Part shown: positions 25,583-27,442 of the stretch, in pieces
How the letters are laid out: each line of letters starts with the position of its first letter
Numbering within the stretch: position 1 is the first letter of the stretch
Source of the DNA: a virus
Virus record (IMG/VR): IMGVR_UViG_3300023109_001684
Direction: 5' to 3' (one strand)
DNA: 64,000 bases
Notes under the pieces: generated by a model
Told to the model about the DNA's origin: nothing
Databases searched by the model: none
What the model saw: the letters and a program-made list of their open reading frames with translations, nothing else
Position numbers and translations under genes: made by a program

Positions 25583-25622
25583 TATAAATATATATGATAC
25601 ATATTTACACATTGTATTTATC
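25583..25622. promoter_or_regulatory. Face-to-face late promoters: TATAAATA (+, 25583-25590) and GATAAATA (-, 25615-25622)
   Basis: Both motifs lie in the 78-bp gap between the divergent tape-measure and gp26-like genes. Confidence 0.55.
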
Positions 25623-25633
25623 AGGAGAAAAAC

Positions 25634-26485
25634 ATGTCGGAAACAAATAATCCGTTACATAAATTTTATAGACAGCCTAAAATTTATATTACATTACCAT
25701 CTAAAGGGCAATTTTGGAAACAAGGCTCTATTGATTTACCTGAGTCAGGTGAAATTCCAGTATTTGCTATGACAGCTAAAGACGAATTAATGACTAAAAC
25801 ACCAGATGCGTTATTAAACGGCGAAGCAACTGTTGAATTAATTCAAAGTTGTGTTCCTAATATCAAAGATGCTTGGCAAACACCAAGTACAGACTTTGAT
25901 GCAATACTAATTGCTATCCGTATTGCTACATATGGAGAGAATATGGACATTAGTTCATTTACTCCAGTAATATCAGAAGAAAAAACATTCTCTTTAGACT
26001 TAATAAGACTGCTGGATACTATTCAAGTCGAGTCATTTGAGACTCAGTTACATACTAACGAACTATCATTCGAAGTTAGACCGCTAACATATAAAGAAAT
26101 GACCGACACAACAAACGAAACGTTTGAAGAGCAGCGTATCTTTAATGCAGTGTCAAATAACGACATGCCTGAAAATGAAAAAATAGCACTTTTTAGAGAT
26201 AGCTTTAAAAAACTTACTGCACTAACAGTTAGAACATTAGAAAAAAGTATTGTTAGCATTACTGTTGGTGAAGATGTTGTAGTTAACCCAGCAATGATTG
26301 CAGATTTTATTAATAATAGTGAAAAAACTGTTTTTGAACTAATAAGCAAGCACATCGAAGTACAAAAAGATAAGTTTAAAATTAAACCTATGATTGTTGA
26401 TGCAACTCCGGAGGAAATTGAAAAAGGTGTTCCTGAAACCTATGAACTGCCTTTGATATTTGACCCATCAAGTTTTTTCGTATAA
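25634..26485 (+). CDS. gp26: Baseplate hub assembly protein, T4 gp26-like (283 aa)
   Basis: Motifs I.LPS.G, MTAKDE, D.DAILIAIRIATYGE, ending in FF. Confidence 0.75.
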   Translation: MSETNNPLHKFYRQPKIYITLPSKGQFWKQGSIDLPESGEIPVFAMTAKDELMTKTPDALLNGEATVELIQSCVPNIKDAWQTPSTDFDAILIAIRIATYGENMDISSFTPVISEEKTFSLDLIRLLDTIQVESFETQLHTNELSFEVRPLTYKEMTDTTNETFEEQRIFNAVSNNDMPENEKIALFRDSFKKLTALTVRTLEKSIVSITVGEDVVVNPAMIADFINNSEKTVFELISKHIEVQKDKFKIKPMIVDATPEEIEKGVPETYELPLIFDPSSFFV

Positions 26486-26709
26486 GGATCTTAACTTTAA
26501 CGGTCGAAGAAGTATTAGCAGAAGTTAAGGTCCTTGAAAACGAGTGTAAAAATTTAAAATTAGAACTATTTAAATTTGCATGGTTTAGTCGAGGTAGCTT
26601 AACTATTGATCATGCATTTGATTTATGTATAGAAGATCGTGAACTTCTTCACGAAATGATTCAAGGAAATTTAGAAACTACTAAAGAATCAGGATTACCG
26701 TTCTTTTAA
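26473..26709 (+). CDS. Start-less ORF (gp51-like baseplate hub chaperone segment), probably translated by -1 frameshift from the gp26-like gene
   Basis: Open -1 frame FFRIRILTLTVEEVLAEVKVLENECKNLKLELFKFAWFSRGSLTIDHAFDLCIEDRELLHEMIQGNLETTKESGLPFF*, with no ATG/GTG/TTG near its 5' end; fills the gap to the next gene. Confidence 0.75.
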   Translation, partial: FFRIRILTLTVEEVLAEVKVLENECKNLKLELFKFAWFSRGSLTIDHAFDLCIEDRELLHEMIQGNLETTKESGLPFF

Positions 26710-26710
26710 T

Positions 26711-27442
26711 TTATTTTGCTTGTCTAAACAATTGAAGAATACGTTGCTGACCGCCTTGGTCATTCATAGCTTGTGCTAACTTACCCAATAACGGTGCAAT
26801 TTCTTTTCTTTCATTAGGTGCTAGTACTTCACCGTTGCCTGCTTTTTGTAATGCTTTAGCAGCTATTGCAGGACTCTTAATACCAGTAGTAGATTTAAAC
26901 TTGTTCATAGCTTGTGCTACAGCTTTGTTATTTCCGGCTGCTGCTGGTGCACCGCCATCTGTAGCATATTTACTGCGCTGTTGTTGACCAGGTGCTTGTT
27001 GTTTAAACCCTTGTTGTACTAAACTCATAATAACTTTATCAATTACTTGCGGAGCAACAGCTTCAGTAACACTATTGTCTAAACTAGCTGTTAGTGTAGC
27101 TGGATTTGGCTTAGGTGTTGCAACAGGTTTCTTTGGAACAATTTTTCTTACAGTTTGTACAACTGAATTTTTATCAAACCCTGCTTTTTGTAAAAAGTCA
27201 ACTAGGTCATTAAGTTCTAATTGATTTTTCTTAATACCTGCTCCTGACATAAATTGATTTAATTCTCTTTTGATACGATTTGCTTCGTCACCTACATCAG
27301 CCTTAGTAGCCATCTTACCAGCAGCATTTTGCATACCAAGTTTACCTGCTACAGCTGAGCCAATTTTACGTGCTGCTTGACCTAACGCTCCAGCTGGTGC
27401 TTCATCTAAGTCATTTTCATTAAGAAGATCATTTATTTTCAT
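26711..27442 (-). CDS. Hypothetical late protein, possible internal head protein (243 aa)
   Basis: ORF track; late promoter at 27474-27481; N-terminal MKINDLLNENDLDEA. Confidence 0.65.
   Translation of the reverse strand: MKINDLLNENDLDEAPAGALGQAARKIGSAVAGKLGMQNAAGKMATKADVGDEANRIKRELNQFMSGAGIKKNQLELNDLVDFLQKAGFDKNSVVQTVRKIVPKKPVATPKPNPATLTASLDNSVTEAVAPQVIDKVIMSLVQQGFKQQAPGQQQRSKYATDGGAPAAAGNNKAVAQAMNKFKSTTGIKSPAIAAKALQKAGNGEVLAPNERKEIAPLLGKLAQAMNDQGGQQRILQLFRQAK

Follow-up and report, generated by a model that had tools for sequence, protein, structure and literature searches.

Long-tailed phages characteristically use a programmed −1 frameshift in their tail assembly chaperone genes, and the T4-type phages have been the known exception; the conservation of this frameshift was reportedly described by Xu, Hendrix and Duda in 2004. 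It is also presented in a later review of recoding (Atkins et al., 2016, PMC5009743, Fig. 4). In T4 two proteins, gp26 and gp51, are listed as chaperones of baseplate-hub assembly (Leiman et al., 2010, PMC3004832, Table 2). The same paper describes gp51 as an essential protein that does not occur in the particle and whose function is not known. Here we report the analysis of a gene of this hub family in a stretch of 64,000 nucleotides of DNA from an uncultured giant phage (IMG/VR record IMGVR_UViG_3300023109_001684), the whole of which is referred to below as the window. An earlier note on this DNA had proposed that the gene, which encodes a gp26-like protein of 283 residues, is extended by a programmed −1 ribosomal frameshift into a downstream open reading frame (ORF) that has no start codon of its own. 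Comparison with homologous loci gives this proposal strong support, and we consider it highly probable that a programmed −1 ribosomal frameshift at the heptamer TTTTTTC yields hub-assembly proteins of two lengths.

The anatomy set out in that note (the end of the gene, the heptamer, the two arms of a downstream stem, the terminal TAA of the −1 frame and predicted products of 283 and 358 residues) was reproduced from the sequence, and the coordinates are listed in Table 1. The 283-residue protein matches the Pfam family PF12322 (T4_baseplate) over residues 40–242 with 36.0 bits, compared with a gathering cut-off of 24.5, and the PHROGs family phrog_150 ('baseplate hub') at 3.7e-12; by these matches the gene is a member of the PF12322 gp26/gp51 baseplate-hub family. 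A tblastn search with the same protein found 94 phage records at about 30% identity, annotated mostly as baseplate hub. The phages matched include Atu_ph07, PA5oct and its relatives, 121Q/PBECO4-like phages, Serratia phage BF and jumbo phages of Erwinia, Xanthomonas and Klebsiella.

The slip site and its conservation

The hub gene ends AGT TTT TTC GTA TAA and thus contains, in the X_XXY_YYZ phase, the heptamer T_TTT_TTC. The triplets NNT TTT TTC were found in phase in 119 of 119 distinct homologous loci, whose proteins share 30–55% identity. These loci include Atu_ph07, PA5oct, 121Q, Serratia BF, XaC1 and Phosso, and cover cultured phages of five genera and one that is unclassified. The codon that precedes TTT TTC is AAT, GAT, AGT, CAT, ACT or CGT, and never the synonym ending in C. 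Elsewhere in the same genes TTT makes up 70% of phenylalanine codons and NNT about 60% of such pairs. Given this codon usage, the chance of NNT TTT TTC is 0.13 per independent lineage and falls below 1e-8 already for ten lineages. Judged against the genes' own codon usage, the synonymous sites of the slip site are under selection.

The T run is exactly six bases long and followed by C in each of the 119 loci, and is longer in none; the base after the heptamer is G in 51 of 52 loci. The zero-frame stop of the homologs lies one, three, four or eleven codons past the heptamer. In Atu_ph07, PA5oct and 121Q the gene ends with CAT or AGT, TTT TTC, one to three further codons and a stop, after which comes a −1 ORF of 71–76 codons, and the same cassette is present in Serratia BF, Xanthomonas XaC1, Sinorhizobium Phosso and Salmonella SD-6_S16. 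A further 147 loci came from two scans of IMG/VR. In that database the extension domain is encoded at no fewer than 597 confirmed loci; 80 of these were kept, and the 74 that were checked all have the slip site. A search of positions 26300–26800 against Rfam gave no match.

The −1 frame extension

Counted from position 26473, the −1 frame is open for 78 codons, as the earlier note had stated, and 76 of these specify new residues after the slip, where the frame reads CGT ATA AGG. The predicted long product therefore has 282 + 76 = 358 residues, with the junction ...DPSSFF/RIR. The nearest upstream stop in this frame lies five codons before the slip point, with no ATG, GTG or TTG between them; nor does any of the three occur in the first 15 codons of the ORF, and the description of the ORF as having no usable start is also correct. 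The first 15 codons of the extension are likewise free of ATG, GTG and TTG in 26 of 52 distinct loci. PA5oct has no start codon near the beginning of the ORF, and where start codons do exist their position varies among loci.

In the homologs the −1 ORF has 70–77 codons. Forty aligned extensions share the pattern R-x-R-L-L ... W-Y-M-R-G-G ... (D/E)-R ... N-L-E-T-T-K-K-x-G-x-P-F-F with almost no insertions or deletions, and residues W35, R38, N64 and P74 are invariant in the extension alignment (A4). Nucleotide variability in the −1 frame is greatest at codon position 3 (0.64), intermediate at position 1 (0.44) and lowest at position 2 (0.28). This measure was used in place of a crude ratio of non-synonymous to synonymous differences (pN/pS), which is saturated for most pairs. 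The other two frames average six to seven stops over the same region. Taken together, the alignment and the codon-position variability identify the −1 ORF as a conserved protein domain of about 76 residues under purifying selection.

AlphaFold2 predicts the extension to be helical, with a predicted local distance difference test (pLDDT) score of 90. The 76-residue sequence matches no family in Pfam or PHROGs. A tblastn search of 50,697 phage records with the window's extension also gave no match, although 121Q, PA5oct and others encode the domain, because the domain is too divergent for a search with a single sequence. In the GenBank records of 121Q, Serratia BF, XaC1 and Phosso the extension appears as a separate hypothetical protein that begins at an internal or overlapping ATG.

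Long forms encoded in a single frame

A profile of the extension was searched against 1.84 billion representative proteins and retrieved 492, mostly small ORFs cut out by gene callers. About 20 of the best 150 matches are proteins of 319–351 residues with the extension domain at the C-terminus, in which the PF12322 body and the extension form one continuous ORF; they are 20–37% identical to one another. Their junction, ...D-x-S-x-x-F-R-x-(K/R)-(L/I)-(L/I), aligns with that of the predicted slip product, ...D-P-S-S-F-F-R-I-R-I-L, and ...SSSF-RSRIL matches the predicted ...PSSFF-RIRIL. The −1 reading therefore rebuilds a protein that other phages encode continuously. Junction DNA, which was taken from six equivalent in-frame IMG/VR loci, is not slippery, with sequences such as TAT TTT CGG or ACT TTC CGA. 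Locus searches with single long forms (P0028 and P0016) gave no match; the long-form alignment (A5) did retrieve loci.

A full-length long form is predicted to fold as one compact unit (pLDDT 90; predicted template modelling score 0.86). Searched against the PDB with Foldseek, neither the extension model nor the full-length long form gave anything below E 0.7, and the structure matches of the full-length form are confined to predicted viral 'baseplate hub' or 'hub assembly' proteins, with no solved structure among them.

Four cysteines of a zinc ribbon (C89, C92, C236 and C239) are invariant in alignment A5. The ribbon (CxxC...CxxC) is a conserved motif that falls outside Pfam's definition of PF12322, and it is present in T4 gp51, PA5oct, 121Q and Atu_ph07. 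The window's hub protein has a single cysteine and hence no four-cysteine ribbon, which on comparison with these sequences has been lost from it. CxxC is also missing from the short paralogs that lie nearest the window's gene on the tree described below.

Copy number and phylogeny

Copy numbers of PF12322 were counted in the genomes of relatives. Atu_ph07, PA5oct and 121Q have the slip site and one PF12322 gene each, as does a 345-kb IMG/VR genome that is 99% complete; all four genomes are complete or nearly so. T4 has no slip site and two PF12322 genes, gp26 and gp51, the second of which continues for about 48 residues beyond the domain. The contrast with T4 that the earlier note had drawn is thus sound, in that gp26 and gp51 are paralogs within PF12322 and genomes with a slip site have one gene to T4's two. 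A further five contigs with an in-frame long form lack the slip site and carry two adjacent PF12322 paralogs, of which the longer includes the extension and the shorter lacks it; the short paralogs end soon after a G-S-x-F motif. The nearest record to the window, a 14-kb fragment (G001), contains no PF12322 match.

A maximum-likelihood tree was calculated from 66 rows of PF12322 bodies under LG+C20, with support given as ultrafast bootstrap and Shimodaira–Hasegawa-like approximate likelihood-ratio test values; about half of the frameshift-type genes had been thinned out of this sample. One genome has its long and its short paralog inside a single clade of frameshift-type genes (100/99), and four other short paralogs fall within a clade that contains the window's gene (100/98). 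From this nesting it follows that the state of one gene with a slip site and the state of two genes have interconverted more than once. The tree is unrooted, and no direction is claimed for any of the changes. Repeated swapping of the two states, as read from the tree, is expected if the short and long forms are both required. T4 gp26 and gp51 group with each other in a separate clade (100/99), and by this placement the T4 duplication looks independent.

In one 260-kb contig (locus L152; G003, 99.4–101.4 kb) an in-frame long form and a short form stand in tandem, both of them nested in the frameshift clade. Its position in the tree suggests that this tandem arose recently by duplication of a frameshift-type gene. 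The junction of the long copy is TAT TTT CGG, which has two T fewer than the usual xAT TTT TTC GGG.

The downstream hairpin

The stem that follows the heptamer in the window has 14 base pairs, one of them U–G, and can be extended by two wobble pairs. Its minimum free energy is −18.3 kcal/mol (z = −3.4), and none of 200 dinucleotide shuffles was as stable. Among 16 close relatives the stem columns pair in 80% of cells, compared with 25–56% when the 3′ partner is slid, and there are a few compensatory changes (A–U to G–C or C–G, and C–G to U–A). In 17 of the 52 loci folded, where 2.6 would be expected, the 90 nucleotides past the heptamer fold better than 95% of segments taken from the gene concerned. 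The 5′ arm always starts 5–6 nucleotides past the heptamer, and the distance to the 3′ arm differs by clade. Some lambda-type chaperone frameshifts work on a slippery site alone. The folding results indicate that the hairpin is probably a frequent, non-obligatory stimulator of the frameshift. The earlier note had looked to homologs for conservation of both the heptamer and the hairpin; this was found in full for the heptamer, and in part for the hairpin, which is enriched overall but missing from one clade.

Proposed mechanism and alternative explanations

In the mechanism that we propose, most ribosomes would read ...AGU UUU UUC GUA UAA and release the 283-residue protein. A fraction would move back by one base, the two tRNA-Phe paired on UUU-UUC re-pairing on UUU-UUU, and would then read CGU AUA AGG and onwards through 76 more codons to give a 358-residue protein with a helical C-terminal domain. 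Slipping is probably made more frequent by the hairpin 4–5 nucleotides downstream, at which the ribosome would pause. Both forms would be needed for assembly of the baseplate hub, probably together with the tape measure, and relatives without the slip site would obtain them from two paralogous genes, as T4 would with gp26 as the short and gp51 as the long form. Published motif rules for E. coli (PMC4066793) describe UUY codons as shifty and a heptamer as prone to frameshifting when its X and Z are homogeneous. That the ribosome and not RNA polymerase slips is something that we infer, as are the ratio of the two products, the role of the hairpin and the job of each form.

Several observations weigh against this mechanism. 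TTTTTTC by itself is at chance level in the AT-rich window, with 27 copies found and 25 expected; the significance of the heptamer lies in its conservation across homologs and not in its rarity in the window. Covariation of the stem within the window's clade is modest, since 85 of 500 shuffles reach its score, and among the 52 loci folded one clade (L032–L039, L042 and L057) has no stable downstream structure. The support for the frameshift comes throughout from comparison of sequences. Furthermore, slippage of RNA polymerase would give a protein identical to the ribosomal product, and the sequence does not directly separate the two.

Such transcriptional slippage would add one U on the T6 run, and some mRNAs would then encode the 358 residues in frame. 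The conserved element does hold a homopolymer of six T on which this could occur. Efficient transcriptional slippage in bacteria uses about eight to nine or more A or T, however, and the run here stops at six in every locus and is followed by C. The codon phase of the run is also fixed, and the hairpin stands at a spacing typical of ribosomal stimulators. We regard slippage by the polymerase as improbable. Two ordinary genes are a very improbable arrangement. Here translation of the downstream ORF would be initiated independently to give a separate small protein, as it is represented by 121Q gp595, BF gp247, XaC1_326 and Phosso 319, and some relatives do have an ATG overlapping the stop of the hub gene (as TAATG or ATGA). 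Against this stand the start codons missing from the window, from half of the 52 loci and from PA5oct, and the shifting position of those that are present, upstream of which R-x-R-L-L is conserved as protein. The in-frame fusions moreover tie the extension domain to the hub protein, and a second gene would leave the invariant synonymous sites of the heptamer unexplained.

Homopolymers are also prone to sequencing error and continuous homologs exist, so that the window might hold a continuous 358-residue gene broken by such an error or by a frameshift mutation. We give this negligible weight: the 119 loci, drawn from finished phage genomes as well as independent metagenomes, all show the same break at the same heptamer, selection on the downstream frame is purifying, and the continuous homologs have one F at the junction and no T7 run. 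In our view, programmed slippage of the ribosome is the most consistent interpretation of the data.

Genomic surroundings

The window contains genes for a T4-type portal, protease and major head protein, gp46/gp47-like nuclease subunits, a SegE-like endonuclease and an ORF of 5207 residues; judging by this gene content, the surroundings are those of a T4-related giant phage. The 862-residue neighbour of the hub gene is divergently transcribed. Its neighbours in the ESM Atlas are mostly tape-measure clusters (score 0.93). It has no family match in Pfam or PHROGs, and a BLASTP comparison with T4 gp29 was not significant. The records of PA5oct, 121Q, BF and XaC1 give the syntenic counterpart as a virion structural protein, and the PA5oct record marks detection by electrospray ionization tandem mass spectrometry for this neighbour and not for the hub gene. 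From its language-model neighbours alone, the 862-residue protein is probably the tail tape measure protein. The earlier note had placed the hub gene back-to-back with the tape measure gene; the two genes are indeed adjacent and divergent, while the identity of the neighbour stays at the level of probability just given.

The sequence TATAAATA, the T4 late-promoter consensus, lies 44 nucleotides upstream of the ATG of the hub gene in the divergent intergenic region, and an AGGAG Shine–Dalgarno sequence lies 6 nucleotides before the ATG. The combination of the two motifs suggests late, T4-style expression of the gene. At the other end of the cassette, a convergent ORF of 243 residues with UBA-like matches below threshold ends two bases past the stop of the extension; Atu_ph07, PA5oct and 121Q have other genes at this place. 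The SegE-type GIY-YIG homing endonuclease (PF19835, 5.9e-36), which is probably a mobile insertion, lies on the minus strand, immediately upstream of the genes for the gp46/gp47-like nuclease subunits. The 5207-residue product is encoded by a single ORF, which is preceded on the same strand by ORFs of 1214, 808 and 1175 residues; these giant ORFs presumably encode virion or fibre proteins.

Table 1. Features of the window and of the extension in related phages. Positions are those of the window unless a locus is named.
Feature	Position	Strand	Remarks
Neighbour of 862 residues	22967-25555	-	Divergently transcribed; probably tail tape measure protein
TATAAATA	25583-25590		T4 late-promoter consensus
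Zero-frame ORF, short product of 283 residues	25634-26485	+	gp26/gp51-family baseplate-hub assembly gene
Slippery heptamer T_TTT_TTC	26473-26479	+	X_XXY_YYZ phase; read directly
−1 frame extension, 76 codons + TAA	26479-26709	+	Stop at 26707-26709; C-terminal domain of predicted 358-residue product
Zero-frame stop TAA	26483-26485	+	One codon past heptamer; read directly
Hairpin	26484-26535	+	Arms 26484-26497 and 26522-26535; 24-nucleotide loop; 4-5 nucleotides after heptamer
Convergent ORF of 243 residues	26711-27442	-	
SegE-type GIY-YIG homing endonuclease	28091-28537	-	Probably mobile insertion
ORF of 5207 residues	43828-59451	+	Presumably virion or fibre protein
Extension in PA5oct	L002 3350-3555		Left unannotated
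Extension in 121Q	L003 3328-3537		As annotated in GenBank
Extension in Serratia BF	L162 1364-1543		As annotated in GenBank
Extension in XaC1	L163 1373-1531		As annotated in GenBank
Extension in Phosso	L164 1331-1561		As annotated in GenBank

Significance

No report of a frameshift in this gp26/gp51 hub family was found in the literature searched, which included the PRFect paper and the 2016 recoding review (PMC5009743); neither of these mentions baseplate or gp26. Ribosomal slippage is annotated in none of the seven GenBank records examined, and current annotations miss the long product, giving the extension as a separate hypothetical protein or leaving it unannotated. The distribution of the cassette indicates that frameshifting is in use in a very large group of T4-related giant phages (at least 597 IMG/VR loci and 94 GenBank records, including Rak2-like, PA5oct-like and Atu_ph07-like phages). 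The replacement of slip site by a pair of short and long genes, or the reverse, more than once amounts to a natural experiment that points to a need for both forms. The system also provides a testable model for the poorly understood gp26 and gp51 of T4.

We can extend this to a tentative model, which we would put at appreciably less than an even chance. In this model the gp26/gp51 family would do in T4-type and giant myophages what the tail assembly chaperone pair gpG/gpGT does in phage lambda: the short form would coat the tape measure, and the rarer long form would dock the complex onto hub or tube proteins through its helical C-terminal domain. The amount of long form would then be set either by the efficiency of frameshifting, where there is one gene, or by a weakly expressed paralog, as with T4 gp51, a 'catalytic' hub factor. 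If correct, this would explain the old puzzle that gp51 is needed in small amounts only and is absent from virions, and T4 would no longer be an exception to the rule of conserved chaperone frameshifting.

Comparison with known systems

The bacterial paradigm is E. coli dnaX, in which a −1 frameshift occurs at A_AAA_AAG with a downstream hairpin. The window resembles dnaX in having a heptamer with a hairpin a few nucleotides downstream and in the prediction of two products from one gene. The shifted product of dnaX is the shorter one, however, and dnaX uses an upstream Shine–Dalgarno-like stimulator; none is visible upstream of position 26473 in the window.

Lambda gpG/gpGT can be compared with the window in the same way. 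In both cases a tail-assembly gene has an X_XXY_YYZ heptamer shortly before its stop codon, and a −1 slip there gives (in the window, is predicted to give) a short product and one extended at the C-terminus, and in both the gene adjoins the tape measure gene, or in the window the probable one. The systems differ in that the window's gene is divergent from its tape-measure-like neighbour instead of upstream and co-oriented, and in the heptamer itself, which is U_UUU_UUC in the window and G_GGA_AAG in lambda. The window's protein matches no tail assembly chaperone family in Pfam or PHROGs, Pfam giving PF12322 alone, and Foldseek found no match in the PDB for either the extension or the full-length long form. 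The 'G/GT-style' frameshift of the earlier note is therefore apt for the logic of the arrangement only. The parallel with lambda is one of analogy, and membership of the chaperone family is unsupported, because there is no link in sequence or fold and because the gene is divergent from its tape-measure-like neighbour.

The same Pfam family includes gp26 (208 residues) and gp51 (249 residues) of T4, which match PF12322 with 216 and 178 bits, compared with 36 for the window's protein. Gene 26 also resembles the window's gene in giving two products from a hub-assembly gene, an internal in-frame start producing the 95-residue C-terminal peptide 26′ (NC_000866). The T4 product arises by internal initiation, however, and is truncated at the N-terminus, with no recoding and no C-terminal extension. 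The FF of T4 gp26 is encoded by TTC TTT, so that there is no slip site, and there is no −1 ORF. Homology of the extension to T4 gp26 was considered and rejected (hhalign probability 0.3%).

The earlier note had called the extension itself a gp51-like ORF, a label that we do not retain: gp51 is itself paralogous to gp26 over the full length and has a tail of some 48 residues. A comparison of profiles with hhalign, made between the extension and gp51, gave a weak match (probability 19%, E 1.2e-3) that is collinear, C-terminal and includes a shared (D/E)R motif; with T4 gp51 alone the probability was 0.4–8%. Homologs of gp51 carry the precomputed family PF28602, and PF12322 is the sole family annotated on the natural long forms. 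Our own Pfam scan gave no PF28602 match even for T4 gp51.

There is also a correspondence with T4 in the layout of the proteins. T4 gp26 ends three residues past its FF (...KEFFELL), at the place where the window's short form ends (...PSSFFV), and T4 gp51, whose gene is adjacent to that of gp26, carries an extra C-terminal tail past the domain, as the window's long form is predicted to do. By this analogy the long form may be gp51-like in role, with a weak likeness in sequence between the 48-residue tail of the one and the 76-residue extension of the other.

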